This document shows positions 15,318 through 55,391 of a DNA stretch of 64,000 bases, in pieces. The notes beneath the pieces are model-generated. The model searched no databases. It saw nothing but the letters and a program-made list of their open reading frames with translations, and was not told where the DNA came from. The stretch covers positions 346,930 to 410,929 of the forward strand of contig JAZJZE010000009.1 in the NCBI GenBank assembly GCA_040390065.1, given 5' to 3'. A program made the translations under genes and the position numbers. Position 1 is the first letter of the stretch, and the number at the start of each line of letters is the position of its first letter. The stretch comes from a bacterium (GTDB lineage Archaea; Thermoplasmatota; E2; JACPAO01; JAHFTW01).

Positions 15318-17243
15318 CTAGTGCGCCACCTTCTCCAGCGCCGCCTTCAACCTCGCGGAGATCAACTGCCCGTCCGCCTTGCCGCGCAACTCGGCCATGA
15401 CGGGGCCCATGAGCGGACCGATGGCGGCCATTCCCTTTGCCTTCACGAAGTCGACGCGCTCGGCGATCACTTTGGCGATGACGGCGTCCACGGCGGCCGC
15501 GTCGAGCGATCCTGCTCCAGCCTTGGCCATGGCGGCATCGAGGCTCTTCTCCCCGGCGTCGAGGGCCTTGAGGATGTCCGGGATGGCTTCCTTGGCGAAC
15601 TTGCCTGCGCGAAGGGCGGCAAACATCCCCGGCAGATGCGCGAGCACCGCGTCGGGCGTCTTGAGTTCCGGAAGGTACTGCAGCAGGACGCGCGCCGCCA
15701 GAGGGCCCTCGGCTCCGGCTTGCACGAGTTCCTGGAATTCCGCCTCCATGCCGTCGGCCACGAGTTGCTGCGCGATGTCCTTGCTGACGCCGTTTGCCTT
15801 GACGAACAGGGCGACCTTTTCCTCGGGCTTCGGCGGGAGGCGGCCCTTCACGTCCTTCCACGTCGCCGCGGAGACGAGAATTGGTGGCACGTCCGTCTCC
15901 GGATACATGCGGGCCGCTCCCGGCATGGGCCGCATGAAGCGCGTCGAATCGTCCGGCTGCACCGCGCGGACTTCCTGCTGGAATGCACTCGCCGCCTGAA
16001 CGTACCTTGCGGCTGCGGCGGCCACTGCCATCCTGGCGATGGCAGGCTTCTCGACGCACAACGCGAACGCGTCGGCGGCACCGCACCCGAGAAGCTGGCG
16101 CACGGCGTCGACTTCGGCCTGGGTGATGCCGTAGCCTGGCAACTCGTCACTGTGGAAGATACCCTTGACGCCGGCCGAGACCTTGGCGTGGTCGGCCAGT
16201 TCGCGGCCGAGGCGGGGCCCGTCCTTCGTCGCCCCCTTGAGGAGTCCCGCGCCGTGCTGGAGGCGTACTCCCATGACCACGGCGCCGCGCTGCAACGACT
16301 CCCGCACGACCTTCGCCGTCGTCGCCGCCAGCGCGGCCGTGACATCGTGAGGCACGTCGGCCTTCGCGCCGCCGAGCCGCTTCAACTCCTCCCGCACGTG
16401 GTGCATCCACAATTGCCGACGGCACTCCGCCTCGATGATGCGGGGAATCGCGCGCAGGTCCTGGCAGCCCTTGATCTCGACGCGGGCACCGACGCCGACG
16501 GAGACGTTGAGGTCCTGCCGGATGGTGCCGAGGCCACGCTTGACGCGCCCCGTCGCCCGAAGCAGGGCACCGATGCGGGCCGCGGCCCGTTGCGCGTGCT
16601 GCGGGTCCACGATGTCCGGCGCCGTCGCCACTTCCAGAAGAGGAATGCCGAGGCGGTCGAGAGTGTACGTCACGACGTCGGCTTCGCCTTCCAGCTTGCG
16701 CGCCGAATCCTCCTCCAACGCCATCGTCCAGATGCCCACGTCACCACCCTCCACGTCGAGCTTGCCACCGGTCGCGATGAGGGCCGTGCGTTGGAAGCCC
16801 GACGTGTTGGAGCCGTCGATGACGGTCTTGCGCATGACGTGCACTTCGTCGACGGGTCGGCCGGCTACGAGGCCCGCGAAGGTGAGTGCCACGTCGAGAG
16901 CATCGGTCGACATTGGGTGAGGCGGCTCTTCGTCCAATTCGACAAGGCTCGACAGGCCGTCCATCACGAGGTAACGGAAGCGACGGTTGCGCCTCGCCTC
17001 GGCCGCTGCCGCTGCGTCGACTTCGCCCAGCTCGGAGCCGGTCGCGCGAAGCACCCGCTCCACGGTCGCAACGGTGCGCCTGGCAACGTCGTCGGGTTCG
17101 ACCACGTCACTGGGGCAGGGGCTGAACAGCTTGCGCGTCGCCAGCTGCTGATGGATCTCCAGGCCACATCGGAAGCCGATGGCCTTGTAATCGAGCTTCG
17201 CCGCCTGGCTCGCGCGTGCCGCGTCGTCTCCTAACGTCGTCAT
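15318..17243 (-). CDS. gatE: Glu-tRNA(Gln) amidotransferase subunit E
   Basis: LDYKAIGFRCGLEIHQQL, IDGSNTSGFQRT, RPMPGAARMYPETD, GPLMGPVMAELRGKADG. Confidence 0.98.
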   Translation of the reverse strand: MTTLGDDAARASQAAKLDYKAIGFRCGLEIHQQLATRKLFSPCPSDVVEPDDVARRTVATVERVLRATGSELGEVDAAAAAEARRNRRFRYLVMDGLSSLVELDEEPPHPMSTDALDVALTFAGLVAGRPVDEVHVMRKTVIDGSNTSGFQRTALIATGGKLDVEGGDVGIWTMALEEDSARKLEGEADVVTYTLDRLGIPLLEVATAPDIVDPQHAQRAAARIGALLRATGRVKRGLGTIRQDLNVSVGVGARVEIKGCQDLRAIPRIIEAECRRQLWMHHVREELKRLGGAKADVPHDVTAALAATTAKVVRESLQRGAVVMGVRLQHGAGLLKGATKDGPRLGRELADHAKVSAGVKGIFHSDELPGYGITQAEVDAVRQLLGCGAADAFALCVEKPAIARMAVAAAAARYVQAASAFQQEVRAVQPDDSTRFMRPMPGAARMYPETDVPPILVSAATWKDVKGRLPPKPEEKVALFVKANGVSKDIAQQLVADGMEAEFQELVQAGAEGPLAARVLLQYLPELKTPDAVLAHLPGMFAALRAGKFAKEAIPDILKALDAGEKSLDAAMAKAGAGSLDAAAVDAVIAKVIAERVDFVKAKGMAAIGPLMGPVMAELRGKADGQLISARLKAALEKVAH

Positions 17244-18538
17244 GCCTTGGCCCCTGGCGCCGCGTGCGCTTCACCGAAGGCCCGCACGTCGATAGGCGCA
17301 TCCATCTCGCCAGCAACTGGGGACAAGAAGCGACGCCGCACCTCGTCGCGCGACTTGGCCCACTCGGGGTGGCCGAGGATCCACATCATCTTGATGTACG
17401 CCACCTCGGGCAACATGTCCTGTGCCGGGATGACACCCATCTGCAACAGGTCACGGCCAGTCGAGTAGACGTTCATGTTCACGGCGCCGCTCACGCATTG
17501 ACTCGCCATGACGACGTGTGCCCCCCTGTCGATGACCGCCTTGATGCCGGGGAGGCAGCGCCGCGCGATGTGCCCAAGCCCCGTGCCGACGATGACGGTG
17601 GCGTCGATCACGACGTCCTCGATGTGCTGCGGCCACAACCCCGGATAACTCAGGATCATGCTCACCTTCTCGTCGAAGCGCGCATCGCATGACGTCGACC
17701 CCTTCCCTGCCTTGACGTAGGGCCGATCCAGCCGCACGGCGCCCGCCTCGACGCGGCCGATCGGGGGCACGTTGATGGATTGGAAAGCGTCGCGCCGACT
17801 CGTATGCATCTTGCGCACGCGCGTCGCCCGGTGGACGAGGCAGACATCGTCCGACGACGAACCGTGCAGCACCGCCACGACTTCGCCAAGGTCCGTGGTC
17901 GCTGCCACCCGCGCCGCAGCCAGGAGATTCATGGAGGCATCCGACGACGGCCGGTCGCTGGAACGCTGCGAGCCCACGAGGACCACGGGACCGGACAAAT
18001 CGCGCAAAGCGAAGGCCAGGGCTGCCGCCGTGTAGGCAAGCGTGTCGGTGCCATGCGGAATCACGACGCCACGCGCCCCGTGATTGAGGTGCCACGCCGC
18101 CCGCTCCGCAATCTTCGCCCAATGCTCCGGCTGCATGTCCTCCGAGAACATGTTGAAGACCACCTCGGCGCGGATGTTGCAGAAGCCGAACAACTCCGGC
18201 GCCGCAGCCGCCAACTCCTCCGGCCGCGTCGCCGGGTGAACACCGCCCGTCCGGTAGTCGATGAAAGACGCAATCGTGCCGCCCGTACCCAGGATTGCAA
18301 TCGTCGGCTTCGACGGGTCATCCACGACCGGCTTGCTCTCGACCTGCCGCGGCTTGCCCTTCTCCACCAACTCGACCTTTGCACCCGCACGCGCCAAGCC
18401 GACGTTGTAACCATTATCCAACTTGAGCGTCAAGATGCCCTCCCCACTGAACGAATGCCGCGGCATGAGAAGACCATCGAACGTCGCCCCATCCGCCGTC
18501 GTGATGCGAATGCGGTCCCCCGGCTGCGGCTCGGACAC
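17240..18538 (-). CDS. gatD: Glu-tRNA(Gln) amidotransferase subunit D
   Basis: KLDNGYNVG, GTGGTIAS, HGTDT, GSQRSSDRPSSD, RKMHTSRRDAF. Confidence 0.98.
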   Translation of the reverse strand: MSEPQPGDRIRITTADGATFDGLLMPRHSFSGEGILTLKLDNGYNVGLARAGAKVELVEKGKPRQVESKPVVDDPSKPTIAILGTGGTIASFIDYRTGGVHPATRPEELAAAAPELFGFCNIRAEVVFNMFSEDMQPEHWAKIAERAAWHLNHGARGVVIPHGTDTLAYTAAALAFALRDLSGPVVLVGSQRSSDRPSSDASMNLLAAARVAATTDLGEVVAVLHGSSSDDVCLVHRATRVRKMHTSRRDAFQSINVPPIGRVEAGAVRLDRPYVKAGKGSTSCDARFDEKVSMILSYPGLWPQHIEDVVIDATVIVGTGLGHIARRCLPGIKAVIDRGAHVVMASQCVSGAVNMNVYSTGRDLLQMGVIPAQDMLPEVAYIKMMWILGHPEWAKSRDEVRRRFLSPVAGEMDAPIDVRAFGEAHAAPGAKA

Positions 18539-18618
18539 GATGGGGCGACGGTGCGAGGGGTTATGGGTTGTGCTGGTGGCGTTTCACTTGCCCCTTCGAC
18601 GCGGACTTGGCCTTTCGC

Positions 18619-18660
18619 GGACGTCCATGGCCGGCCAAGCACGTCCACGGACGTCCAGGC
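18619..18660. repeat. Helically phased direct repeats ACGTCCA (18621, 18641, 18651; degenerate at 18631)
   Basis: Read directly; GGACGTCC palindromes at 18619 and 18649; immediately upstream of RHH gene. Confidence 0.65.
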
Positions 18661-18669
18661 GGAGCCCGC

Positions 18670-18843
18670 ATGCCCAACCGAATCGACTACGCCTCCATCG
18701 AAATCCCCCGCATCCTGCACGACCGCCTGCGCATGGCGAAGGAGCATCATCGGCAATCGTATTGGGAACTGGTCGAGGCGATGCTGGATTATTGGGAGGA
18801 TATGGGCGGGTGGGACTACGGGAGGAGGCCGCCCGTGCCATGA
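18670..18843 (+). CDS. Small ribbon-helix-helix-like protein (57 aa), paralog of 40981..41163
   Basis: SIEIPRILHDRL..HHRQSYWELVE..WEDMGGW; beta-strand-helix-helix pattern. Confidence 0.7.
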   Translation: MPNRIDYASIEIPRILHDRLRMAKEHHRQSYWELVEAMLDYWEDMGGWDYGRRPPVP

Positions 18844-18856
18844 TGCGGCCGGGCCG

Positions 18857-19543
18857 TCAAATGGCCGGCCCGCTGGCTTCGGTGGCGAGGCGTTCGAATT
18901 CCGTTCGGATTCCCGGGCCGAAATCGTGCCGGCCTGCGATGGCGGCGGCGACGACGTAGGCCGCCAGACTGGCTCCGACGACGAGGGCGACGCGCCCCCA
19001 TGCATGCATCATGTCAGCGACATCCCCCCACGCGTCGCACATCACCGGGCGCACGGCCGCGTTGGGACAGGCCTTCCCGTTGGAGCTCATGTTGAAGCCG
19101 CCGATGACGAGCAAGAACGCTGCGGCGCTGCCGAGGCTCCATGCGCCGATTGCCCGGGGCGAGGGGGCGCCTGGCAGCGCCTGCTTGAAGGCCATCCAGC
19201 GGGACTTCGTGATGCGCCCGTTTGCAAGCCAACCTGTCGCGGCGCGTTCCATGCCACGGCAGGTCCAGGCCCGTCGAAGGCGCCATGCGAGAAGGCCGAC
19301 GAGGCCTCCCAGCCATCCTGCAGCAAGCGTGGCCGGGATGGCCTTGACCAGGTTTAGCCAGCCTTCCCACCGTTCGCGTACCGCCCATTCGGTGTCGGTC
19401 TGACCGCCGGGTGCGAAGCGCTCCGCGAAGGTGTCGAGCGAGATGACGACGGCGACCGCGATGGCGGCGGCGACGACGACCAGACGCAGGCGCGGCCGGA
19501 CAAGCCGCCCGCCAACCCAGTCGACCGGGGCCGCCCAGTTCAC
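18857..19543 (-). CDS. Multi-pass membrane protein
   Basis: GTG overlapping upstream TGA; about four hydrophobic segments. Confidence 0.6.
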   Translation of the reverse strand: MNWAAPVDWVGGRLVRPRLRLVVVAAAIAVAVVISLDTFAERFAPGGQTDTEWAVRERWEGWLNLVKAIPATLAAGWLGGLVGLLAWRLRRAWTCRGMERAATGWLANGRITKSRWMAFKQALPGAPSPRAIGAWSLGSAAAFLLVIGGFNMSSNGKACPNAAVRPVMCDAWGDVADMMHAWGRVALVVGASLAAYVVAAAIAGRHDFGPGIRTEFERLATEASGPAI

Positions 19544-19941
19544 GGTTTCAGCCCCTTCACCAACTCCAGCAGCTTGCCTTCGAGCATGTCGGATTTCTCC
19601 AACTTGTAGTCGTAGGCGACTTGCACGGTCTTGCCAGTGGCGTAGATGATGGAGGTTTTCTTGTCTTTGATCTCGTAGTCGAAGTCCCAGCTCTTGCCGC
19701 CAATGCGGCTGGTCCACATCTTGACTTGGGGTTGGGCGTTCATCTTCATGGGGTTCTTGTAGTCCAGGGCGGCGTGGGCGAGGATGAAGGGGAAGTCGCG
19801 TTCCGAGGTGGAGCCGGCGATTTCGGTGAAGAAGCGCATGCGGCAGTGTTCGAGGTAGGTGAGGAAGAGGGCGTTGTTGACGTGGCCCATGCCGTCGACG
19901 TCGTTGAAGCGCACGTCGACCGTGCAGCTGAAGGCGGCCAT
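19540..19941 (-). CDS. Acyl-CoA thioesterase (4HBT/YbgC family)
   Basis: VRFNDVDGMGHVNNALFLTYLE. Confidence 0.9.
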   Translation of the reverse strand: MAAFSCTVDVRFNDVDGMGHVNNALFLTYLEHCRMRFFTEIAGSTSERDFPFILAHAALDYKNPMKMNAQPQVKMWTSRIGGKSWDFDYEIKDKKTSIIYATGKTVQVAYDYKLEKSDMLEGKLLELVKGLKP

Positions 19942-20372
19942 CAGTTGCCTCCGACGATGCGTTGGACTTTGATGGCGAGGTCGTGCAGGTCTTCGGAGGC
20001 GGCGGTGGTGGTGCCCTTGAATGCGGCGTGGATGGGGCCGCCGCCGTCGCCCTTCGTGCGCGGGACGATGTGCATGTGCAGGTGCTGGACTTCTTGGCCG
20101 GCGGCGGGGCCGTTGTGGATGGCGAGTGTCGCGTCGGTGGCTCCAGTCGCTTTGCCCAGGGCTTTGGTGAGTCTGCGTGCGGCTGCAATCAGTGCGGCTG
20201 CGTCCTCGGGGCTGGCGTCTTCGAGTTTGGCGGTGTGCCGCTTGGGGACGAGGAGGGTGTGACCTGGCCGTAGCGGGTGGATGTCGAGGAAGGCGAAGAC
20301 GCGTTCGTCTTGGTAGAGTTCGGCGCTGGGGAGGTTGCCGGCGGCGATGCGGCAGAAGAGGCAGTCATCCAT
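19941..20372 (-). CDS. HIT family hydrolase
   Basis: CLFCRI, FLDIHP..GHTLLVPK, GQEVQHLHMHIVPR. Confidence 0.95.
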   Translation of the reverse strand: MDDCLFCRIAAGNLPSAELYQDERVFAFLDIHPLRPGHTLLVPKRHTAKLEDASPEDAAALIAAARRLTKALGKATGATDATLAIHNGPAAGQEVQHLHMHIVPRTKGDGGGPIHAAFKGTTTAASEDLHDLAIKVQRIVGGN

Positions 20373-20421
20373 CTTGCGTCGCGCAGGCTGGTGTCGGGCT
20401 TTAGCGATGCCGCCAGGGGGG

Positions 20422-20949
20422 TTACGCCTTGGCGGGCAGCGGCTCGAGGCTGCGCACGGTCACGGACTTGACGCCGCGTACGCGCTGCAGGGTCGGGATG
20501 AGGGTGCCGGGAATTGCCGTCGCGGTGACGACGAAGAGGACGGGCTCGTCGGTGAAGTCGGGGTCCTCGACGATGGCTTGCTTGATGCTGAGGCCGGCTT
20601 CGGCGATGGCGTGGCTGACGGCGGCGAGGATGCCGGGTTGGTTGGCGTCGGAGGCGACAATCTGCAGCACGCCGGCTCCCATGATTGGCCCGACGTCCTT
20701 GAGGTGGAGTGTGGGGGCGAAGCGGCTGAAGACGCGTGACAACTGCGGGTTGGCTGCGATGGTCTCGACGGTGGAGCGCACGATGCGGCGGTCGACGCCG
20801 GCTGCGCGGGCGAGCGCGGTGTCGGTGACTTCGATGGTGCCTGCAAGGACGCGGTCGCCGTCGATGCGCAGGCCGTTTTGGATCATGAGCCGGACGACTT
20901 TTTCCTGGGCTGGGAAGCGCCGGAAATGGTCGATGAGGACTTGCCACAT
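20422..20949 (-). CDS. Archaeal ACT-domain regulator of amino acid metabolism (COG2150-like)
   Basis: MW..F.RFPAQEKV, ALARAAGVDRRIV, PGILA..I...SIKQAI; divergent from aro operon. Confidence 0.85.
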   Translation of the reverse strand: MWQVLIDHFRRFPAQEKVVRLMIQNGLRIDGDRVLAGTIEVTDTALARAAGVDRRIVRSTVETIAANPQLSRVFSRFAPTLHLKDVGPIMGAGVLQIVASDANQPGILAAVSHAIAEAGLSIKQAIVEDPDFTDEPVLFVVTATAIPGTLIPTLQRVRGVKSVTVRSLEPLPAKA

Positions 20950-21081
20950 GTGGTGACCATTGCTCAAAAATGCACTTAACCGTTTGTTCGCGAGCATCTT
21001 GTGCCGAGTCGGGCACCCAGGCCCGGTGGCCCGGCGGAGGCGCGGCAAATCCAGATATAAGATGCCCCGCTGGGCGGCCGC

Positions 21082-38863: not shown

Positions 38864-39739
38864 CTAATTCCCCTTGAAGTTCGCGACCCTCTTCTCGACG
38901 TACGCGGCGATGCCTTCCTTGGCATCCTTGGATCCAAAGAGTTCAGCCTGCAATTCGCGCTCCAAGGCCAAGCCGTACTCCAACGGAATCTCGGCACCGG
39001 ACTGCACGGCGCGCTTGATGCGGCCGGCCGCCATGGCCGCCTTGTTCGGGGTACTGAACTGGCCCGCGTAGTCGAGGATTGCCTGGCGGAAATCCGCAGC
39101 ACTTCCCGGGTAGATGTCCGTCACGATGCCGAGGTTCTTCGCATCCTCGAAACTGATGTTGTTGCCCGTCACCATGAGCTCGATGGCCTTGGGCTTGCCA
39201 ACGAGGCGAGCCAGGCGCTGCGTGCCCCCGGTACCGGCCAGCACACCCAAGTTGATCTCCGGCAGCCCGACCTTGCCCGCATCCTTGCGCGCGATTCGCA
39301 AATCCGCCGCCATGGCAATCTCCAAACCACCGCCGACTGCGTGGCCATTCAAGGCCGCGATGACCAACTTCGGCGTCTGCTCGAGGCGGCTCAACGTCTC
39401 GTTCGCATGCAAACAGAAGAAATACTTGTAGCCAGGAGTGACCTTGTTCAACATCTGGATGCTGGCCCCCGCCGAGAAGAACTTCTCGCCGTGCCCAATG
39501 AGGACGATGACGTGCACATTGTCATCGAAGCGCGCCTTCAGCACAGCCTCGTCGATGTCCCGCATCATCTCATGCGTGTACGTGTTCGGCCCCGACGCGC
39601 CCTCCTTGAGCGGCGCACCAGCCGAGTCGCTTGCCAACTCGATGACCGCGATGCCATTCGGCGTCACGCCATAGTTCACCAAACGGTTCGCCATCGGCGA
39701 GAGCTTCAAGGCAGTCTGGGCGGGCGCATTCTGGGCCAT
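38864..39739 (-). CDS. Enoyl-CoA hydratase/crotonase family
   Basis: FFSAGA, ALNGHAVGGGLEIAMAADLR, GLPEINLGVLAGTGGTQRL. Confidence 0.93.
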   Translation of the reverse strand: MAQNAPAQTALKLSPMANRLVNYGVTPNGIAVIELASDSAGAPLKEGASGPNTYTHEMMRDIDEAVLKARFDDNVHVIVLIGHGEKFFSAGASIQMLNKVTPGYKYFFCLHANETLSRLEQTPKLVIAALNGHAVGGGLEIAMAADLRIARKDAGKVGLPEINLGVLAGTGGTQRLARLVGKPKAIELMVTGNNISFEDAKNLGIVTDIYPGSAADFRQAILDYAGQFSTPNKAAMAAGRIKRAVQSGAEIPLEYGLALERELQAELFGSKDAKEGIAAYVEKRVANFKGN

Positions 39740-39839
39740 ACCACGCCCAGGAACGCCCCGTTCTTCAAGCCTTGGCCATGAGCCCCACTCCCACGAACAA
39801 GCCGGCGCACCCTTTATACGCCAAGGCAAGTCGGCCACA

Positions 39840-40169
39840 ATGACCGGCAACGGCTGGCACGCAGCCCTCCCCCTGACGGACGTGCCCAACGGCCGACCGC
39901 ACGAAGCCACCATCGCCGGCGTCAGCGTCCTCATCATCCGCCAAGGCAACGACGTCTACGCGACCACCCTCCACTGCCCCCACAAATTCGGCAACCTCGC
40001 CGAAGGCACCCTCGCCGGCCGTCTGCTGACCTGCCCCCAACACACGGCCACCTTCGACCTCGCCACCGGCCGACCCCGCCCGGGCGAAGAATGGGCCGGC
40101 AACCTCACCACATACGCATGCCGCGTCCGCGAAGGCCTCGTCGAAGTCCAACTCCCAGCCCTCGCCTGA
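39840..40169 (+). CDS. Rieske [2Fe-2S] ferredoxin
   Basis: CPH...CPQH..FDLATG. Confidence 0.92.
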   Translation: MTGNGWHAALPLTDVPNGRPHEATIAGVSVLIIRQGNDVYATTLHCPHKFGNLAEGTLAGRLLTCPQHTATFDLATGRPRPGEEWAGNLTTYACRVREGLVEVQLPALA

Positions 40170-40175
40170 ACCAGC

Positions 40176-40958
40176 CTAAATCGAATTCAGACGCCCGCCA
40201 TCCACCGGCATCACGATACCACGTACGAACGACGCAGCCGGCGAACAAAGGAACGCTACCGCGGCACCAATCTCCTCCGGGCGCCCCAACCGACCCTCGG
40301 GCTGCGCATCGATCCAACCCTGCCGCACCTGCGCCACCGACTTCCCCGTCCGCTTCGACGTCGCGTCACTCAGCTCGCTCAAACGCTCCGTGTCGGTGTA
40401 CCCCGGCAGAATGCAATTCACCGTGATCCCCGGCGGCAACTCCTTACTGAGCGTCTTCGACCAAGACGCCATGCTCGCCCGCATCGCATTGCCAATGCCA
40501 AGACCGACAATCGGCTCCCGCACCGACGTCGACAAAATGCTCACGATACGACCATACCCCGCCGCCTTCATCCCCGGCACACAAATCTGCGCCAACAGAT
40601 GACTCGCCAACTGGATACGCCCATACGCCTTCAACAAATCCGCCTCCGACACCTCCAACAACGGCAACGACGGCGGCCCCCCCTGATTGTTCACGAGGAT
40701 GTGCACCGGATGCTGCCGCACATGCGCCTCCACCTTGACACGCAACCCCACCCGGTCCTCCAAATCACAGGGCAAGACATGCACATGGCTGGCCCCAGCA
40801 GCCAACACCTCCTTCGCCGCATCGCGCAACTCGCCCTCGCGCCGCGCCAGCAACGTCACAATCGCACCGAGACGCCCCAGCTCGACCGCCGCGGCACGCC
40901 CAAGCCCCGCCGACGCCCCGCAAACAAGCGCATGCCGACCCTTCAAAGAAAGATCCAC
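40176..40958 (-). CDS. SDR oxidoreductase (atypical FabG-like)
   Basis: CGASAGLG, ILVNNQGGPP, TVNCILPGYTDTER, GRLGRPEE, VDGG. Confidence 0.92.
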   Translation of the reverse strand: MDLSLKGRHALVCGASAGLGRAAAVELGRLGAIVTLLARREGELRDAAKEVLAAGASHVHVLPCDLEDRVGLRVKVEAHVRQHPVHILVNNQGGPPSLPLLEVSEADLLKAYGRIQLASHLLAQICVPGMKAAGYGRIVSILSTSVREPIVGLGIGNAMRASMASWSKTLSKELPPGITVNCILPGYTDTERLSELSDATSKRTGKSVAQVRQGWIDAQPEGRLGRPEEIGAAVAFLCSPAASFVRGIVMPVDGGRLNSI

Positions 40959-40980
40959 GCCGCCCCCACGCCGCGGCCAC

Positions 40981-41163
40981 CTAAGACGCTTGGCCCGACC
41001 AAGGACCCGGCAAACCCACCCACCCCCCACGCTCCTCCCAGAACAAGAACGCCTCCTCGACCACCTCATGCAACGCCTGACGCGGATGCAAACGATGGCG
41101 CGCGATGAGATCACGAAGATAGGCGGGAATTTCGATGGTGGTGGAATCCGTGGTGCGGACCAT
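40981..41163 (-). CDS. Small ribbon-helix-helix-like protein (60 aa), paralog of 18670..18843
   Basis: TTIEIPAYLRDLI..LHPRQALHEVVE..FWEERGGW. Confidence 0.7.
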   Translation of the reverse strand: MVRTTDSTTIEIPAYLRDLIARHRLHPRQALHEVVEEAFLFWEERGGWVGLPGPWSGQAS

Positions 41164-41179
41164 GGCATAGGCACCGCGC

Positions 41180-41195
41180 GGTTCCTATAGGAGCC
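41180..41195. promoter_or_regulatory. Near-palindrome GGTTCCTATAGGAGCC over the probable TATA box of the RHH gene
   Basis: Perfect core TCCTATAGGA ~20-28 nt upstream of ATG 41163. Confidence 0.45.
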
Positions 41196-41249
41196 TCGCG
41201 GCGGGGGAACCGAAATCGCACAGCGGTTGGTGGCGCGGCCAGGCGCCGG

Positions 41250-41975
41250 CTATGGGATAAGCACGGCCCGCACCGGGCTGGCGTCGGCGCCTTCCAGCCG
41301 TAGGGGCAAGGCGATCAGGGTGTATGTTCCGGGCTTGACGTGGGCCAGGACGAGGCCTTCGAGGTTGACCATGCCGCGGGCGAAGAGGCGTTTGTGGGCT
41401 TCGAGGCCCTTGGAGGCGAAGAGGTCGGTGGAGGGTGTGTCCAACCCTACCAGGATGCAGCCGGCGTCGGCGAGGTGGTCGATGAGTTTTGGGTCGGGGG
41501 CGGCGAAGTCTTCGTTCCATTCGGTGGGGTCGGGGAATGTGCCGGTTTTGAGGAGGACGCGTGGCGTCGTGATGGGGGATGTGAGGTGAGCCGGGAGGAT
41601 GCGCTTGCCCCTTGCAGTCGTGGTCTCGATGACTTGGCAGGGTCCATAGTATGCCGTCAGGGGCATGGTGGCTGCGTCCGGGCCGTCGGTGGCGTAGTGG
41701 CGGTGGGCGTCGGTGTGGGCTCCGACGTGGAAGGAGGTGTGCATGCTGCCGATGTCGATGCCGTCTTTGTGCACGTCGGATGACTTCTCCATCTTGTAGG
41801 GGATGTCGCCGGGCCAGTTCTTGATTGCGTCGTTGATGGGGGGGGAGATGTCGATGAAGCGGACGAGCTCCTCTTTGGGCATGCCTGGCAGTCCCTTGTC
41901 GGCGGCGGCGCGGTCGGCGGCTCGGTCCGCGGCGCGGGCGGCGCTTTGGACGTCGCGCCAGGAGCCGGACTTCAT
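41250..41975 (-). CDS. kynB: Cyclase family / kynurenine formamidase
   Basis: IDISPP..WPGD, HVGAHTDAHRH, GLDTPSTD, NLEGL, GADASPVRAVL. Confidence 0.85.
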   Translation of the reverse strand: MKSGSWRDVQSAARAADRAADRAAADKGLPGMPKEELVRFIDISPPINDAIKNWPGDIPYKMEKSSDVHKDGIDIGSMHTSFHVGAHTDAHRHYATDGPDAATMPLTAYYGPCQVIETTTARGKRILPAHLTSPITTPRVLLKTGTFPDPTEWNEDFAAPDPKLIDHLADAGCILVGLDTPSTDLFASKGLEAHKRLFARGMVNLEGLVLAHVKPGTYTLIALPLRLEGADASPVRAVLIP

Positions 41976-43684
41976 GGGTGCGCCTTGGTTGGCATCTTGG
42001 CGACGACTTTGAGTTCCACGGCGATGGGGCCAGGGAGGGCTTGCACTTCAACTGTCGTGCGCGCTGGCTGGATGTTGCCGAAGTACTCATTGTAGACGGT
42101 GTTGAAGTCGGCGAAGTCGCGTTTCATGTCGATGAGGAAGGCGCTGACGTCGAAGACGTCTTCGAGGCTGGCTCCGGATTCTTGGAGGATGGTCTTGATG
42201 TTCTCGATGCATTGGCGGGTCTGCGCCTTGACGTCGTAGGCGAGGCGTTTGCCGTGTGCGTCGTGGACGGGGCCGCCGGTCGTCGCATTGGTTTTCGGGT
42301 GGCGGGGACCGATGCCGGCCAGGTACAGGAGGTCGCCGACGCGGCGGGCGTGGGCGTAGGCGGCGTAGGGTTTGGGGGCTTTGCTCGTCGCCACGACGCC
42401 TGACTTGTCAACAGATGGAACAGATGCACTAGATGACGAAATCTGTTTCTTCTCTTTCATCTGTTGACCCGTAGGGCGGGCAGCGGCCGTTTCCTGCAGC
42501 AAGGGCGAGCCGCCCCGCGGCCCTTCCGTCTTCGATGGCATGCGGCCTTCCCACTTGTCGCCCTCCTCCATGGTGAGGACGTTGAGTTGCGTTGCGCCGC
42601 CCGCGGAGCCGGAGGAGAGGACGTTGCGGTCGCCGCCGAAGTATTCGGCGTCGTCTTCGTCGAACTCCTTGTCGGCCGTGGCCTTCAAAGTCGGAGTGAG
42701 ACCGACGACGGCTGCGCCCGTCCCGTAGATGGGCTCGTAGGCGAACACGTTGCCGTCGTAGTGGTTGCTGGCGCCCATCACGGCGGACAGCCACCAGATG
42801 GCCTTCATCTTCTGGTCGCCGTTGGCTTGACCGGAGAATTCGCGGGCGAGTTGGCTCGCGTCCTCGAGGCGACCCTTGCCGAGGAATTCCAGGTACTTGC
42901 GGTTCCACTCGTCGTCCTTGAGGCTATGGATGCGGTCCTTCGCGAAGGGAATGATATCCGTGTGCATGCGGTTGCTGAGGGCCGTTACCGCAATTGCCAC
43001 GACGCGCTTGCCGGATGCTTGGACGGCGTCGCGGGCGGCCTTGCCGAGGACAATTGTCTCGGCGCGGTCGGCGTACATGTTGCACGACACGATCGAGGCC
43101 GCAATTTCATTCTTTGGCGACAATAGTTTGAGGGCCACGACGGAGCCGGTGTCGATGGGAAAACCGTGGTAGTCCACGGTGCGCATCTCCAGGCCGCGCT
43201 TCTCGCCGTGCTCGACGTACGACTTGCCAAAGGCTGGGTCCATGCGGAGCTTGTACGGAATGGAGCCGAGTTCATGCCATTCGGGGTCGACGTGGTTCCA
43301 CTCCGGCGCCGGCCGCGCTTGGACTTGGTGGCCGATGACCGAGAGCCACTGCGTCGAGTACAGCAAGAGGAGGTCGGGCTTGAGGCGCTTGATCTCGGCG
43401 CGCACGGACTCATAGGCGTCGCGGACGCGTTGGTACGCCGGATTCGCTTCGGGGATGAGGTAGGGGTGCGGAAGGCCAGGGACGATGAAGGCGGCGATGA
43501 GGCCTGGGCGCCCGTTCACCGACTGCGCCGCGGATGGCGCTGAGACCGCGGCGGCGTTCGGTTTCATCTGTTTCACGGGTTGACTCGACGAGCCACGGGC
43601 CGAACGAACCAAGGAACGCACAGACCCCGCTGAACGCGTGTTCTGTGGTTTCTGTAAAGTCTGCGGTTTGGTTTTGCGGGTCAT
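41972..43684 (-). CDS. amnA-amnD: 2-aminophenol 1,6-dioxygenase alpha subunit fused to RidA-family 2-aminomuconate deaminase
   Basis: AFIVPGLP, LYSTQWL, HVDPEW, GFPIDTG, DDEWNR, YGTGAAV (AmnA-like); YAHARRVGDLLYLAGIGPR..PARTTVEV..LPGPIAVELK (RidA). Confidence 0.85.
   Translation of the reverse strand: MTRKTKPQTLQKPQNTRSAGSVRSLVRSARGSSSQPVKQMKPNAAAVSAPSAAQSVNGRPGLIAAFIVPGLPHPYLIPEANPAYQRVRDAYESVRAEIKRLKPDLLLLYSTQWLSVIGHQVQARPAPEWNHVDPEWHELGSIPYKLRMDPAFGKSYVEHGEKRGLEMRTVDYHGFPIDTGSVVALKLLSPKNEIAASIVSCNMYADRAETIVLGKAARDAVQASGKRVVAIAVTALSNRMHTDIIPFAKDRIHSLKDDEWNRKYLEFLGKGRLEDASQLAREFSGQANGDQKMKAIWWLSAVMGASNHYDGNVFAYEPIYGTGAAVVGLTPTLKATADKEFDEDDAEYFGGDRNVLSSGSAGGATQLNVLTMEEGDKWEGRMPSKTEGPRGGSPLLQETAAARPTGQQMKEKKQISSSSASVPSVDKSGVVATSKAPKPYAAYAHARRVGDLLYLAGIGPRHPKTNATTGGPVHDAHGKRLAYDVKAQTRQCIENIKTILQESGASLEDVFDVSAFLIDMKRDFADFNTVYNEYFGNIQPARTTVEVQALPGPIAVELKVVAKMPTKAHP
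42407..42468. repeat. 9-mer palindromic element (copy B) in the AmnA-RidA linker
   Basis: GTCAACAGAT-GGAACAGAT-GCACTAGAT-GACGAA-ATCTGTTTC-TTCTCTTTC-ATCTGTTGAC. Confidence 0.88.
43514..43584. repeat. Degenerate 9-mer palindromic element (copy E)
   Basis: Right arm TTCGGTTTC-ATCTGTTTC-ACGGGTTGAC; left arm eroded. Confidence 0.5.
43599..43684 (-). repeat. N-terminal hairpin cassette (copy F)
   Basis: Homologous to 50987..51069; includes the start codon of amnA. Confidence 0.8.
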
Positions 43685-53240: not shown

Positions 53241-54560
53241 ATGACCGGGATGACGCTCCCGCAGAAGATCCTGGCCCTCAAGTCCGGCAACATGGCCGTG
53301 ACGGTCGGCGAGGTCGTCGACTGCAAGGTCGACGTCGCCATGGCGCACGAGGCCCTCGCACAACTCGTGAAGCCGTTCAAGGAGATGGGCGCCACCAAGG
53401 TCTGGGACCCGAACCGCATCGTCGTCCCCATCGACCACTGGATCCCCGCCTCCTCCGAATCGTCGGCGAAGATGCACCAGAGCATCCGCAAGTTCGTCGA
53501 CGAGTACAAGCTGCCGCACCTGTATGACATCGGCCGCCAGGGCATCTGTCACCAGATCCTCGCCGAGGAGGGCTTCTGCCTGCCGGGCGACCTCGTCGTC
53601 GGGACCGACTCGCACACGAACATGGCCGGCGCCCTCGGCTGCTTCGCCAGCGGCATCGGGCCGACCGAGATGGCCGCCGTCTTCGCCACGGGCGAACTCT
53701 GGATGCGCGTGCCGCCCACCATCAAGATCGAACTCACCGGCGAACTCACCGAGCCCGTCGCAAGCAAGGACGTCGTGCTCAGCCTCATCGGCAAGATGGG
53801 CGACGACGGCGCCCGCTACCAAGCGGTACAGTTCCAGGGCCCCGCCATCGACGCGATGCCCATGTACCAGCGCCTCACACTCACCAACATGACGACGGAG
53901 ATGGGCGCCAAGGCCGGCGTCATCGCCTGCGACGACGAGACGCTCGACTACCTGGACGCGACGCCCATGGCCAGCGGCCGCCGCAGAGAAATCCGCAACC
54001 ACTCCGGCCTACGCGCCGACAAGGACGCCACGTACGCCAAGACCTACACCTTGGATTGCGGCACGCTCGAACCCGTCGTCGCCTGCCCGCAAAGCCCGGA
54101 GAACGTCAAGCCCGTCCGCGACGTCAACGTCCCCAAGGTGGACCAAGTCTTCATCGGCTCCTGCACCAACGCCCGCTACGAAGACCTCGAAACGGTCGCC
54201 GCCATCCTCAAGGGCAACCACGTCAAACGCGGAACACGCCTCGTCGTCTTCCCCGCCAGCACCAGCATCTACCTCCGAGCCCTTGAATCCGGAATCATCA
54301 AGACCATCACGGAAGCCGGCGGCATCTTCAACCCCAGCTCCTGCGGCGCCTGCTTCGGCGGCATGGGCGGCGTCCTGGCCGAGAAAGAAGTCTGCGTCTC
54401 CACCTCGAACAGAAATTACAAGGGACGCATGGGACACCCCGAATCCATGTCGTACCTCGTGAGCCCCGCGACGGCCGCAGTGACCGCGCTCGAAGGCAAA
54501 CTCACAGACCCGCGCGAGTACTATTCCGACGGAGAATTGAGGAAGAAGGTCGCAGCGTGA
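53241..54560 (+). CDS. leuC: 3-isopropylmalate dehydratase/homoaconitase large subunit
   Basis: DHW, GICHQ, GTDSHT, FIGSCTNAR, CGACFG, STSNRNYKGRMG. Confidence 0.93.
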   Translation: MTGMTLPQKILALKSGNMAVTVGEVVDCKVDVAMAHEALAQLVKPFKEMGATKVWDPNRIVVPIDHWIPASSESSAKMHQSIRKFVDEYKLPHLYDIGRQGICHQILAEEGFCLPGDLVVGTDSHTNMAGALGCFASGIGPTEMAAVFATGELWMRVPPTIKIELTGELTEPVASKDVVLSLIGKMGDDGARYQAVQFQGPAIDAMPMYQRLTLTNMTTEMGAKAGVIACDDETLDYLDATPMASGRRREIRNHSGLRADKDATYAKTYTLDCGTLEPVVACPQSPENVKPVRDVNVPKVDQVFIGSCTNARYEDLETVAAILKGNHVKRGTRLVVFPASTSIYLRALESGIIKTITEAGGIFNPSSCGACFGGMGGVLAEKEVCVSTSNRNYKGRMGHPESMSYLVSPATAAVTALEGKLTDPREYYSDGELRKKVAA

Positions 54561-55048
54561 AACGCCAGGACCCGGGCGAAGCCCGCGCGCCGGCCACCAG
54601 GGGACCCGCCGAGAAACACCTGCGCAAGACCACATCCGCGCTTGCCCTTGGAGCGATCTTGACCGCCCTTGGGACCTTTCTTGGCGTGTTCATCGCCCAC
54701 AATGCGTACACCTATTCCCTTGAGACTCACGAACTTGAAGGCATCGCCGCCGTGATACTCTTCACCGCAATCGGCGCCATCGCGGCCTTCCTGCTGCTGG
54801 CCGGCGTTCTCATGCTGGCCTTTGCGGGGGCTCGCCAAAGGTCGCGCCCCGAACGCCGCACCGCTGAAGCACTCGTGGCGGCCTCGGGTTGCACCTGGAC
54901 GTGGTGCGGGGCCACGCCCTGGCCCTACCACATCCCATCGACCATCGGCCTGGCGGTGGGCGTCGCACTGATGGTCGCGGCGGCCGCGATGTTCGTCGTT
55001 GCGGAACCGGCCGTTTTGACGGCACGGCTGGGAACACGCCCTCAATAA
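54557..55048 (+). CDS. Membrane protein
   Basis: Three hydrophobic helices; GTGA-coupled to leuC. Confidence 0.6.
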   Translation: MKRQDPGEARAPATRGPAEKHLRKTTSALALGAILTALGTFLGVFIAHNAYTYSLETHELEGIAAVILFTAIGAIAAFLLLAGVLMLAFAGARQRSRPERRTAEALVAASGCTWTWCGATPWPYHIPSTIGLAVGVALMVAAAAMFVVAEPAVLTARLGTRPQ

Positions 55049-55233
55049 TCCAACTTGACCACGTGCACACTCTGCGAACCCTGGCACCGCGGACAACGCA
55101 ACGGCACAACCACCGCCTTCCCCGCCGGCAAGAACACGCCAGTCCCACGACACGTCGAGCAGCGCGGATTAGGCGACCGCACCCGCGTCGGCCGAGGCGG
55201 ACGACCGTTGACGCGCATCTCGGCCAAAGGCAT
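55042..55233 (-). CDS. Small DnaJ-type Zn-finger protein
   Basis: CSTCRGTGVF..CPRCQGS; paralog of 44991..45203. Confidence 0.6.
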   Translation of the reverse strand: MPLAEMRVNGRPPRPTRVRSPNPRCSTCRGTGVFLPAGKAVVVPLRCPRCQGSQSVHVVKLDY

Positions 55234-55290
55234 GGCGTTGGGTTCAACGCCGGAGGGCTAAAGTCAGGCCAGATAGCGGCGGGTTTCCTT

Positions 55291-55322
55291 CCTGAAGGCA
55301 AGGTTCCTTCAGGCGCCTGAAG
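55291..55322. promoter_or_regulatory. Three alternating CCTGAAG(G) sites forming overlapping inverted repeats
   Basis: CCTGAAGG-N7-CCTTCAGG plus perfect palindrome CTTCAGGCGCCTGAAG (55307..55322) in a divergent promoter region. Confidence 0.5.
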
Positions 55323-55391
55323 TATCGTCCAGGAAAGGTTTCGCGCCCCCCTGGAAAGCCTCCATGGACCTTTGCTACGTGTCAGCGAACC

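Follow-up and report, generated by a model that had tools for sequence, protein, structure and literature searches.

The locus and its features

The window analysed, a 64,000-nucleotide stretch of the 2.68-Mb genome of an uncultured archaeon (labelled G000 in the genus comparison below), contains three sites at which strand composition changes sign. At the site considered here, gatE and gatD on the left and a membrane-protein, a thioesterase, a HIT and an ACT gene on the right flank a small RHH gene and the repeat array preceding it (Table 1).

Table 1. Coordinates of the features at the locus and at the other flips in the window.
Feature	Position	Strand	Basis and remarks
gatE	15318..17243	-	Pfam GatB_N 3.9e-49; distal left arm
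gatD	17240..18538	-	Pfam Asparaginase 4.8e-63, GatD_N 2.1e-16; left arm
GTTTCAC-N3-CCCC box	18581..18594	+	Upstream of array; read from sequence
10-bp phased repeat array (class B), flip centre	18619..18658	.	TRF period 10, 4.0 copies
RHH protein gene, 57 aa	18670..18843	+	Family HMM E 5e-32
Predicted membrane protein gene, 228 aa	18857..19543	-	Without Pfam match
4HBT thioesterase	19540..19941	-	Pfam 4HBT_2 8.7e-17; right arm begins
HIT-family hydrolase	19941..20372	-	Pfam HIT 1.7e-27; right-arm core
ACT-domain protein	20422..20949	-	Pfam ACT 9.6e-5, under curated cut-off; right arm ends
Sister flip, strongest in genome (F3 1.09)	38864..43576	.	Skew scan
Sister-flip centre, RHH gene	40981..41163	-	
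Sister-flip centre, array	41170..41195		
Third flip (F3 0.67)	53241..56408	.	Skew scan

The RHH protein belongs to a small, genus-centred family, and its matches to the Pfam RHH families are weak, with none at cut-off. As noted in the preliminary description, it is paralogous to the RHH protein of the sister flip (39.6% identity over 48 aa, E = 3e-6). Its AF2 model (pLDDT 79) has two helices, and in the homodimer model the N-terminal strands form an antiparallel ribbon in which residues 8-12 pair across the dimer. The dimer model scored 0.50 and the best of three controls 0.00 (20 of 30 proteins whose solved structures are one-chain pairs attain 0.50, as does one of 23 solved as single chains), with contact agreement of at least 96% and partner pLDDT of at least 73 across the runs. 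Because RHH dimers are already solved structures, this pass is to be read as likeness to RHH dimers, and the RHH proteins are predicted to be small dimeric DNA binders.

The array (consensus CGGACGTCCA; units GGACGTCC, GGCCGGCC, GCACGTCC and again GGACGTCC) lies immediately 5' of the RHH start codon, 80 bp from the gatD start, and is kept at the orthologous locus of the related genome G004. Each family RHH gene is preceded by its own array of three to eight 10-bp phased repeats, from which it reads outward, and the repeat sequence covaries with the N-terminal strand of the RHH protein; the 10-bp arrays are likely to represent RHH operators. A (G/A)TTTCAC-then-CCCC box found 40-115 nt 5' of most family RHH genes (21 upstream regions), here GTTTCAC-N3-CCCC, may be the RHH promoter; TTTCAC as such is no common promoter element, 6 of 853 upstream regions containing it.

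Strand composition on either side of the array

Composition was expressed as keto skew, (G+T-C-A)/1000 per 1-kb window (10,413 genome windows, SD 0.076, 99.9th percentile 0.238), and as k3, the keto (G/T) excess at third codon positions of the coding strand (genome median -0.183, robust SD 0.096). F denotes the raw skew flip, F3 the third-position flip with gene orientation controlled (median 0.09 and 90th percentile 0.22 at random positions), and D the excess on the plus strand.

The skew flip previously described beside the RHH gene was confirmed, with a raw F of 0.26 (3.7 SD) and an F3 of 0.60 (5 SD above the mean, quantile 0.998) peaking at C9:365650, window position 18721; its centre, placed earlier at 18.6-19.5 kb, is instead the array in the gatD-RHH intergenic region. 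To the left, the reported drift of 5' gatD to G/T-ending codons holds, k3 declining away from the centre from +0.42 to about zero (sextiles 5' to 3': +0.42, +0.33, +0.19, +0.06, -0.08, +0.12; point-biserial P = 0.002), a gradient statistic at the 98.6th percentile among 583 long genes. Over the whole gene k3 is +0.17 (z = +3.7), the third positions of the coding (minus) strand being G/T-enriched, and raw skew is just ~1 SD (-0.08). The third-position profile proposed for gatD and gatE is thus graded in the former, with a weak leftover skew in the latter (k3 -0.06, D -0.13).

To the right, the thioesterase, HIT and ACT genes turn the plus strand G/T-rich, as had also been claimed, to the 99.9th percentile of 1-kb windows (at 19572-20571, keto skew +0.25, GC skew +0.25 and AT skew -0.25). 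Values of k3 are -0.46 for the thioesterase (3' half -0.25, 5' half -0.67), -0.69 for HIT (z = -5.3) and -0.56 for ACT (z = -3.9), at whose start codon the skew ends. The membrane-protein gene, between the centre and this island, has normal silent sites (k3 -0.24). The lack of skew in this centre-adjacent gene, with the maximum of the right arm 1.1-2.3 kb from the centre, counts against a footprint anchored at the array and calls for the added assumption of a recent insertion; the gene has probably entered a variable slot not long ago. In G004 another gene occupies the slot, and 70 bp from the 3' end of the thioesterase gene are duplicated at its flank.

At the sister flip, D is -0.32 for ECH (-), -0.58 for Rieske (+) and -0.85 for SDR (-) on the left, and +0.41 for the cyclase (-) and +0.14 for LigB-RidA (-) on the right, with k3 of +0.67 (z +8.9) in SDR and -0.76 (z -6.0) in Rieske. 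The three left-hand genes all leave the plus strand C/A-rich, so the bias tracks the DNA strand and not gene direction. The third flip separates an aconitase-family gene (+; D -0.25) from a radical-SAM gene (+; D +0.48); it is without an RHH gene and contains a GGTTCC/TGAAGG repeat-like stretch at ~55271-55341.

Flips across the genome and their markers

Some nine comparable local flips were found across the genome, and strong flips have uniform polarity, the plus strand being C/A-rich, then G/T-rich: F exceeded 0.3 at 70 positions (4 loci) and fell below -0.3 at none, and F3 exceeded 0.6 at 73 positions and fell below -0.6 at none. The skew, which extends 1-3 kb to either side of the arrays, decays over 2-3 kb with a sign independent of gene direction, mean outward excess per 300 bp at eight centres being 0.49, 0.39, 0.33, 0.28, 0.26, 0.26, 0.16, 0.25, 0.13 and 0.00 in right arms and 0.36, 0.56, 0.42, 0.47, 0.32, 0.27, 0.22, 0.19, 0.21, 0.21 and 0.14 in left arms. 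At two-fold sites the outward strand has T/(C+T) of 0.27 vs 0.12 in the rest of the genome and A/(A+G) of 0.13 vs 0.23, and the inward strand 0.06 and 0.44, respectively, a transition signature. Genome-wide, k3 of neighbouring genes correlates at r = -0.13 on opposite strands (n = 638) and r = +0.20 on the same strand (n = 1402). At five other flips the flanks consist of housekeeping genes (Trm1, AspRS-type, PurN, FolC-like, TopA, nuoABC, DEAD helicase), and genes of mobile elements are absent.

Four of the five RHH family copies lie within 1 kb of one of the top eight flips (F3 at least 0.57), whose neighbourhoods make up 0.76% of the genome (analytic P = 1.6e-8), and in the permutation of this co-location that had been suggested none of 200,000 permutations matched it. 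The fifth copy is of a separate subfamily, an RHH-nucleotidyltransferase fusion. In five other species of the genus, right-minus-left values are above zero at 21 of 23 RHH sites, with a mean of +0.164 vs -0.013 at 130 control boundaries (Mann-Whitney P = 1e-6). Both counts show that RHH loci mark the flip sites, as proposed earlier; they may also specify them, which is a separate, causal claim. Five genome matches to the class A pattern, (GGNNCC-N4)x3, are all intergenic and all at flips (F3 0.53-1.09), and five to the class B pattern are all intergenic with F3 of 0.24-0.60, all above the 90th percentile of random positions. Arrays without a neighbouring RHH gene are likewise found at flips, and the 10-bp array is the better flip marker. 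A tRNA-Gly with fragment repeats lies 150 bp from the RHH gene at C9:117k.

Origin of the skew

gatD is syntenic through the genus (protein identity 73-86%), and skew at its silent sites is confined to G000 (about +0.17 to +0.18) and G004 (+0.14), both with an adjoining RHH gene; in all 16 cases without one, from 10 genomes of the genus and 6 metagenome contigs, silent-site composition is normal (-0.18 to -0.38). The gatD skew is a derived state, and its tie to the adjoining RHH gene (2/2 with, 0/16 without) argues against horizontal transfer and points toward a local mutational process. The preliminary description's view that this is not simple horizontal transfer agrees with such synteny, with skew just beside an RHH gene and with the gradient inside gatD. 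Orthologues in relatives are normal for the thioesterase (k3 -0.08 to -0.35) and HIT (-0.24 to -0.40). G004 has a class C array, with no RHH gene, ahead of ACT, and ACT is skewed there in the opposite sense to G000 (D +0.40), as the right arm of such an array should be. Relatives show the effect less strongly, and no F3 of at least 0.5 was found in the 400 kb of G004 scanned, which holds just two RHH-family matches (a weak one at E 4.7e-5 and another at a contig edge, with no score).

Proposed mechanism and alternatives

No chromosome-scale skew change occurs at the centres, so a normal replication origin there is rejected and a short-range process must be postulated. Both orc1/cdc6 genes (C11:201.6-202.9 kb and C5:165.5-166.7 kb) lie away from the centres and are without a flip, and no initiator, nickase or nuclease genes were found at flip centres. 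The reading preferred here, with a probability of about 0.45, is that outward DNA synthesis or unwinding from RHH-bound arrays leaves a strand-specific mutational footprint, anchored at this locus on the array before the RHH gene. Each predicted dimeric RHH binder is encoded behind its own array, and the array with bound RHH protein would therefore be the physical anchor. Synthesis or unwinding would begin there repeatedly and proceed outward for a few kilobases, and might start by origin-like initiation, by nick-primed strand displacement or, where a break forms at the array, by fill-in synthesis. The strand running 5' to 3' away from the array on either side would gain G and T and lose C and A at silent sites, most strongly beside the array and fading over 2-3 kb whatever the gene orientation. 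The outward strand could be displaced and, while single-stranded, undergo deamination (C to T, A to G), or be re-made by an error-prone polymerase favouring G.T mispairs. Either route would yield the observed sign; a break at the centre would do so only with polymerase error dominant, deamination of resected overhangs giving the opposite.

Polarity by itself is compatible with outward DNA synthesis and outward transcription alike. An unlikely alternative is divergent transcription with R-loops, in which strong outward transcripts from array promoters, sense for outward genes and antisense for inward genes, would expose the non-template (outward) strand to deamination, G-rich RNA stabilising the R-loops and so reinforcing the cycle, as at CpG-island promoters with GC skew; R-loop-linked GC skew at promoters has been published (PMC3787257). 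The promoter-region position of the arrays, the outward reading of all RHH genes and the nearby gatD start would suit it, as would outward transcription of both neighbours at several centres (C9:592k, C3:82.5k), a T5 run on the outward strand at the ACT start, and a slight genome-wide keto enrichment of the first 72 codons (-0.161 vs -0.21). However, half of the skewed genes face the centre (23 of 40 within 2 kb), so that kilobase-long antisense transcripts would be required across HIT/ACT, cyclase/LigB, Rieske, PurN and NTPase, and T5 runs do not match skew drops over 16 arms. Divergent promoters of the ordinary kind are without a flip (311 gene pairs, mean right-minus-left +0.016, above 0.5 in 1.3%), autorepressed RHH promoters are unlikely to be the strongest in the cell, and the sign change at 41 kb falls ~70 nt within the RHH coding region, not at the RHH promoter.

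Tightly bound repressor arrays are known to block replication forks, and the centres are putative protein-binding arrays. It is conceivable, if improbable, that the RHH-array complex stalls arriving replication forks (or RNA polymerases) and that processing, with loss of the nascent leading strand 3' to 5' and then re-synthesis, scars each side strand-specifically. Signs of rearrangement at some centres (the inserted gene and duplication in G004, the tRNA-Gly fragment repeats at C9:117k) would fit, but forks reach a fixed site mostly from one side whereas every strong centre has about equal arms on both sides, and in its simplest form, with the lagging-strand template exposed behind the stalled fork, the model would give the reverse polarity. 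Selection (expression level) or foreign donor codon usage, with RHH genes as bystander regulators, is very improbable, since the independence of the sign from orientation and the comparison of orthologues largely refute it: the right island coincides with one operon and highly expressed-looking operons (C10:42-55 kb) favour C-ending codons (k3 down to -0.52), but AT3 skew in the latter is near 0 against +/-0.6-0.9 in the arms, adjacent opposite-strand genes have opposite coding-strand bias, gatD carries a gradient within a single gene, GC3 is at genome level (0.81-0.90), 16 relatives have normal orthologues in conserved synteny, and all strong flips share a single polarity.

Comparison with known systems

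Autoregulated RHH repressors and RHH centromere-binding proteins with tandem iterons include CopG, Arc/MetJ, ParR/ParG and omega. The proteins described here resemble them in size (~45-60 aa), in the beta-strand followed by two helices, in the predicted antiparallel-ribbon dimer and in the helically phased tandem repeats directly 5' of their own genes; unlike them, they match no Pfam RHH family at cut-off. No ParA/ParM partner was found among flank genes scanned at four RHH loci of this genome, and literature searches returned no report of a strand-composition footprint left by known RHH systems.

Strand asymmetry linked to replication is seen in the skew switch at bacterial oriC, the upward skew jumps at mammalian origins and the gradient of vertebrate mtDNA. 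The flips share with origins the top-strand polarity and a similar coupling of C to T with A to G, and with mtDNA a gradient scaling with a distance. They differ in range (2-3 kb vs a replichore), in number (~nine sites per 2.7 Mb), in having no nearby orc1/cdc6 or chromosome-scale trend, and in a local amplitude (third-position excess up to 0.9) above that of usual replication skews (for asymmetry at origins, see PMC3269012 and PMC10030826). GC skew with R-loops at CpG-island promoters (Ginno et al., 2013; PMC3787257) similarly starts at a promoter-like site, is outward co-oriented and spans a kilobase but is eukaryotic and linked to sense transcription, whereas half of the affected genes here read toward the centre.

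The closest published phenomenon is that of GRINS (PNAS, 2021; PMC8256042), which are defined as duplicated regions of > 500 bp and > 80% identity with intense correlated GC and TA skews of unknown cause, described in bacteria, mainly in Streptomyces PKS genes; skewed regions in single copy are also mentioned. Common to both are same-sign GC/TA skew (G+T vs C+A) strongest at third codon positions, location within functional genes and an abrupt G+T-rich/C+A-rich switch within 1 kb, and the right island reaches the skew level set for GRINS (mean absolute GC skew 0.26 and TA skew 0.22 over 1.35 kb). Unlike GRINS, the tracts here are single-copy (longest non-self match 243 bp at 67%), lie in archaeal housekeeping genes and are mirror-symmetric about putative RHH operator arrays, decaying with distance, whereas GRINS were described without an anchor site, fixed polarity or associated protein. 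The RHH/array anchor is the new part of the finding: for intense local strand bias a fixed anchor, the 10-bp arrays before small RHH genes, is now available.

Compositional skew at the gatD-RHH locus

The source assembly (2.68 Mb in 50 contigs, 67% G+C) is that of an archaeon, judging from the presence of GatD/GatE and Orc1/Cdc6 genes. On the + strand between positions 19572 and 20571, GC, AT and keto skews reach +0.25, -0.25 and +0.25, respectively (1-kb windows), and the keto value exceeds the 99.9th percentile (0.238) of the 10,413 1-kb windows of the genome (SD 0.076), in keeping with the preliminary description of a G/T-rich + strand over the thioesterase, HIT and ACT genes. The third-position keto excess of the coding strand (k3; G+T minus C+A), computed on the calls of a gene caller made insensitive to G versus C and A versus T at third codon positions, has a genome-wide median of -0.183 (robust SD 0.096) and is -0.46, -0.69 and -0.56 in these three genes. 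In gatD, k3 is +0.17 (z +3.7) and declines from the 5′ end (+0.42, +0.33, +0.19, +0.06, -0.08, +0.12; P = 0.002), so that the drift of its 5′ part to G/T-ending codons, noticed previously by inspection, is recovered as a gradient at the 98.6th percentile among 583 long genes, which generally have a small 5′ effect. The left side is modest in raw skew (∼1 SD), the raw "flip" here being chiefly the right-hand island. Since the mean keto skew of coding strands is -0.055, a raw flip of ∼+0.11 is to be expected from convergent genes by themselves, and flips were therefore scored on third positions with correction for gene strand (F3; value of the 1.5 kb to the right less that of the 1.5 kb to the left, SD 0.119).

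No known RNA family was detected between 17000 and 21500 at E ≤ 0.1, and scans with sigma-70 and intrinsic-terminator models, which are bacterial and ill-suited to an archaeon, returned nothing. Across 853 upstream regions genome-wide, A+T content peaks 26-35 nt before start codons, with enrichment of the words CTTTAT, CTTATC and CCTTAA after AAACCC, which suggests that mRNAs are mostly leaderless and that a BRE/TATA consensus lies near AAACCCTTAT(C). To the left of gatE, G+C dips to 0.588 at 14001-15000 (0.65-0.73 in the rest of the window), and almost no genes are called from 13466 to 15318.

Features of the gatD-RHH locus, skew flips in the source genome and other sites discussed in the text. 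Positions without a prefix are those of the window; C, contig; L, the same site in the fetched locus; G004, nearest relative; G007, congener lacking RHH genes.
Feature	Position	Strand	F3	Remark
Long ORF, 494 aa	13809-15293	+		sole long ORF of the G+C dip; no Pfam match
gatE	15318-17243	-
gatD	17240-18538	-
Repeat array	18619-18658			TRF: 18618-18657, period 10, 4.0 copies
RHH gene, 57 aa	18670-18843	+
Membrane-protein gene, 228 aa	18857-19543	-		no Pfam match
4HBT thioesterase	19540-19941	-
HIT hydrolase	19941-20372	-
ACT-domain protein	20422-20949	-
DeoC	21103-21816	+
SDR	40176-40859	-		most skewed gene
Flip	C9:387800		1.09	window 41 kb
Flip	C5:23800		1.03
Flip	C9:592150		0.95
Flip	C48:1500		0.89
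Flip	C9:401800		0.67	window 55 kb
Flip	C5:248750		0.62
Flip	C9:365650		0.60	gatD-RHH locus; maximum at window 18721
Flip	C9:116650		0.57
Flip	C3:82400		0.53
RHH-nucleotidyltransferase-like fusion gene	C1:207437-207874 (L051:6437-6874)			no flip
tRNA-Gly(TCC) region	C9:116640-117040 (L046:6640-7040)
One-sided skewed gene	C5:202815-204290			k3 -0.80, z -6.4
Insert in nearest relative	G004:C15:48604-49209 (L054:7605-8210)			∼460 bp
Raw flip in RHH-free congener	G007:C3:236362-237099 (L121:16362-17099)			raw flip 0.33

Skew flips across the genome

Raw flips exceed 0.3 at 70 scan positions, which fall into four loci, and are below -0.3 at none; likewise, F3 exceeds 0.6 at 73 positions and is nowhere below -0.6. 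All of the top flips share one polarity, the top strand being C/A-rich to the left and G/T-rich to the right, and the negative F3 peaks are the outer borders of the same skew islands. At the 41-kb flip, where every gene strand assignment is Pfam-backed, the third-position excess on the + strand (D) is -0.32 in ECH(-), -0.58 in Rieske(+) and -0.85 in SDR(-) to the left, and +0.41 in cyclase(-) and +0.14 in LigB-RidA(-) to the right. The bias at the flips is tied to the DNA strand: G/T enrichment lies on the outward strand, which leaves the center 5′ to 3′, and is mirror-symmetric, distance-decaying and independent of gene orientation. As a mean of eight centers, the outward excess falls from ∼0.5 to 0 across 2.5-3.5 kb on both sides.

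Silent changes at two-fold sites are transitions only. At such sites T/(C+T) and A/(A+G) are 0.27 and 0.13 on the outward strand, 0.06 and 0.44 on the inward strand, and 0.12 and 0.23 in the remainder of the genome, while four-fold sites have a G share of 0.48 (up from 0.34) and a C share of 0.38 (down from 0.54). At the level of genes, extreme values are found for both GC3 skew and AT3 skew, with codon positions 1 and 2 near normal and GC3 unchanged from the genome level. Unlike the flip arms, a likely highly expressed operon on contig C10 favors C-ending codons with an AT3 skew of ∼0.

Around 55 kb (53241-56408), a flip of the same polarity lies between an aconitase-family gene (+), which is C/A-rich, and a G/T-rich radical-SAM gene (+; k3 +0.30); a GGTTCC/TGAAGG repeat-like stretch is found between them at ∼55271-55341, with no RHH gene there. 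The gene with the strongest C/A bias in the genome, on contig C5, forms a one-sided island (D -0.61) for which neither a partner arm nor an array was found. In the RHH-free congener, 800 kb scanned gave six loci with F3 ≥ 0.5 and three with F3 ≤ -0.5 in a noisier background (SD 0.15-0.17). Its sole raw flip is marginal, occupies the 3′ end of a beta-propeller surface-protein gene adjoining tRNA genes, has no repeat array, and probably has another cause, namely the codon bias of a single gene. Contigs C1 and C2 of the nearest relative (400 kb) contain no F3 ≥ 0.5, a span that holds two of the 10 RHH matches of that genome, of which one is weak and the other adjoins a contig edge.

Repeat arrays at flip centers

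In nearly every RHH gene (21 upstream regions), 10-bp phased repeats end a few bases 5′ of the start codon; the arrays, which immediately precede the gene in most of these 21 cases, are candidate RHH operators. The repeats fall into classes that co-vary with the N-terminal strand of the RHH protein: GGTTCC/GGAGCC (41 kb, C5 and six relatives), GGACGTCC/GGCCGGCC (the gatD-RHH locus, its orthologue in the nearest relative, and others), GCACGTGC, and CTGTGGTA/CCACAG. The (GGNNCC-N4)x3 pattern (class A) has five matches in the genome, all intergenic and all at flips (F3 0.53-1.09); as the pattern was derived from flip centers, the informative part of this result is the absence of matches elsewhere. 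The pattern of the gatD-RHH array (class B) also has five matches, again confined to intergenic DNA, where local F3 is 0.24, 0.31, 0.33, 0.35 and 0.60, the median at random positions being 0.09 and the 90th percentile 0.22. A spacer variant of class A, CCTATAGG, occurs six times in the genome: of the four strongest flips, three have one copy each, two copies precede the fusion gene on contig C1, and one lies elsewhere; the two copies just 5′ of the fusion gene are palindromes. Arrays or array-like repeats are also present at the flips lacking an RHH gene (C9:592k, C48, C3:82.5k and window 55 kb).

At the C9:117k flip, a tRNA-Gly(TCC) gene is located 150 bp from the RHH gene and flip center, and is preceded by two ∼100-bp tandem repeats, each starting with a copy of the 3′ part of the tRNA.

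The RHH family and its association with flips

The RHH genes at 18.7 and 41.1 kb are paralogues, as the preliminary description had proposed and sequence comparison has borne out. A family profile search detected five copies in the genome, four of which are short, stand-alone genes, each less than 1 kb from a top-eight flip. The genome share within 1 kb of F3 ≥ 0.57 is 0.76%, which gives a chance P of ∼1.6e-8 for four of five copies, and none of 200,000 permutations reached this number. The suggestion that RHH loci co-locate with skew flips thus holds for these four copies but not for the fifth, on contig C1, which carries a nucleotidyltransferase-like (MNT-type) tail and has no flip. Fusions of this kind, of 140-150 aa, are also seen among distant database matches. 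The RHH family is a small one, with 121 representatives in 1.84 billion proteins at E ≤ 1e-3, and is genus-centered, being present in nine of 12 other genomes of the genus (up to 10 copies) and in five of 28 more distant genomes searched. At 23 RHH sites with genes called in five congeners, the right-minus-left difference is positive at 21 (mean +0.164) versus a mean of -0.013 (SD 0.134) at 130 control gene boundaries of the same loci, a difference for which the Mann-Whitney P of 1e-6 overstates the evidence as related genomes are non-independent. No link of RHH proteins, or of transcription-factor or operator arrays, to local skew was found in the literature outside subscription journals.

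None of the curated Pfam RHH profiles matched any of 20 family members at cut-off, the best matches below it being RHH_1 (E 0.031, one member), RHH_10 (E 0.11) and DUF7557 (E 0.006, five members), and a PDB profile search with the family gave AmrZ at E 0.81. AF2 (20 sequences) predicts helices at residues 14-23 and 31-44 (pLDDT 79). A two-copy model scored 0.50 versus 0.00 for the best of three controls, passing a dimer-score mark reached by 20 of 30 solved one-chain pairs and one of 23 solved single chains; contacts agree to at least 96% between runs, with a partner pLDDT of no less than 73. The modeled contacts (8-12, 9-11, 10-10, and helix B to helix B) give a predicted homodimer in which residues 8-12 pair antiparallel, the hallmark of RHH proteins, with the expected N-terminal strand and two helices, although, RHH dimers being among solved structures, the score may reflect likeness to these.

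gatD in related genomes

The order of gatD followed by thioesterase-HIT is kept in all 12 genomes of the genus, whereas an RHH gene and array beside gatD are found only in the source genome and its nearest relative (gatD k3 +0.18 and +0.14). Across the remaining 10 genomes and six metagenome contigs of the genus, gatD has k3 of -0.18 to -0.38 with no 5′ rise, and the thioesterase and HIT genes are normal (-0.08 to -0.40) in every relative that has them. Since gatD is skewed only with the RHH module and the three genes are otherwise normal, the skew is a local condition, derived within genes of vertical descent, and arrived with the module. The ACT gene of the nearest relative is skewed in the direction opposite to that of the source genome (D +0.40), and directly 5′ of it is a GCACGTGC-type array of 10-bp repeats with no RHH gene, as expected if every array is a center. 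Same-species strains from which to polarize a SNP spectrum were not found, the best metagenome gatD relative being 78% identical.

The membrane-protein gene between the center and the right-hand island is unskewed, and its slot is variable, being occupied by another gene in the nearest relative. There, an insert with a small membrane/PH-like ORF lies between the thioesterase and RHH genes, with the 3′ end of the thioesterase gene (∼70 bp) repeated on each side; such re-copying of a gene end suggests a hot spot of integration next to the array. Given this variable slot and duplication, the unskewed membrane gene is probably a recent arrival.

Origin of the skew

The reading preferred here is an array-anchored, strand-specific mutational bias, to which a probability of roughly 0.85 is assigned. 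As to the underlying process, outward DNA synthesis or unwinding from an RHH-bound array is given a little under an even chance. Deamination of single-stranded C and A is the classical driver of strand bias. With this driver, processes started at the center and running outward would fit the sign, be they outward transcription, loading of a helicase that moves outward, displacement synthesis primed at nicks, or a bubble resembling replication. Outward synthesis would also fit the driver proposed for GRINS, in which G.T mispairs enrich the nascent strand in keto bases, and fill-in synthesis after a break at the array would count as such. A break followed by deamination of 3′ overhangs was rejected, as by reasoning it predicts the opposite polarity.

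Divergent transcription with R-loops, outward from the arrays, shares this direction, and T5+ runs fit as arm ends at the gatD-RHH locus though not at most others. It is nevertheless unlikely, since 23 of 40 arm genes point inward, 311 ordinary divergent promoter pairs have no flip (mean +0.016), and the sign change at 41 kb lies ∼70 nt within the RHH coding region. Roadblock processing at the arrays is more doubtful still, because inward-running processes such as fork stalling, with exposure of the lagging template, predict by reasoning the opposite sign and should also be one-sided. As for selection or HGT, the earlier argument that a gradient within vertically inherited gatD speaks against simple HGT is upheld by synteny and by normal k3 in relatives lacking the RHH gene, and such causes are considered very improbable. 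A cause outside these four readings takes the remaining probability.

As a tentative extension of the array-anchored reading, less probable than outward synthesis or unwinding as such, RHH-bound arrays might be loading or start sites of an undescribed short-range bidirectional DNA transaction, a protein-addressed local mutator of archaeal chromosomes; abortive origin-like unwinding, nick-primed displacement synthesis and programmed break repair would be candidates. The question is made tractable here by an invariant polarity, a length scale of decay, a sharply located center (40-80 bp of phased repeats) and an associated DNA-binding protein family, and the core gene gatD offers a natural gain-of-site experiment, so that a compositional oddity is now testable. 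Should a protein address strand-specific mutation, this would bear on mutation-rate variation along prokaryotic genomes, on skew-based origin calling in MAGs and on HGT detection from codon usage, in which skewed genes look "foreign," and might represent natural targeted mutagenesis.

Comparison with known systems

A canonical archaeal oriC was ruled out, as there is no orc1/cdc6 beside the centers and no chromosome-scale change. The Cdc6_C matches (C11:201686-201976 and C5:166405-166665) have maximum F3 of 0.15 and 0.25 with no flip near, and no chromosome-scale V at the centers was seen in 20-kb bins of orientation-corrected excess, which stays within ∼±0.05 save in bins with skew islands (to -0.12). 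The elements of the TTTCAC...CCCC box probably stand in the reverse of their order in the ORB consensus, and inspection of 18539-18669 showed no AT-rich stretch. Nor does the organization match a plasmid-type partition locus (RHH centromere-binding protein, iterons and ParA/ParM), ParA and ParM being absent by Pfam among the neighbors of the four RHH genes of the source genome, which comprise GatD, membrane protein, SDR, cyclase, Trm1, THEP1-type NTPase_1 and TopA. A mobile island is ruled out by the genes flanking five other centers (Trm1, class II aaRS, PurN, FolC-like ligase, PabAB, TopA, nuoABC and DEAD-box helicase).

The closest counterpart is GRINS, intense local G+T/C+A skews in functional genes published without a mechanism or anchor (PMC8256042); the paper also mentions single-copy skewed regions, leaves the mechanism open, and describes the same kind of skew as the archaeal flips. 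GRINS are defined there by mean absolute GC and TA skews >0.15 over >500 bp (150-nt windows, step 30) and by duplication at >80% DNA identity over >500 bp within the genome or cluster (PMC8256042). The 1.35 kb at 19600-20950 exceeds the skew values (mean |GC| 0.260, mean |TA| 0.219; 41 windows), gatD alone stays below them (0.111/0.108), and the gatD-to-ACT tract as a whole gives 0.153/0.152. As in GRINS, GC and TA skews are most pronounced at third codon positions and are correlated, with Pearson r of 0.54 over the whole tract and 0.73 for the left arm at 41 kb, although r within single arms is low or negative. In blastn searches of the assembly (89% complete), 17240-20950 gave six non-self matches, the longest 243 bp at 67%, and 38860-43570 a longest non-self match of 101 bp, so that GRINS by definition is ruled out, the tracts not being duplicated. 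If the tentative proposal of a protein-addressed local transaction is correct, GRINS-type intense skews would be traces of a process of this class, and small RHH proteins its first identifiable address label.
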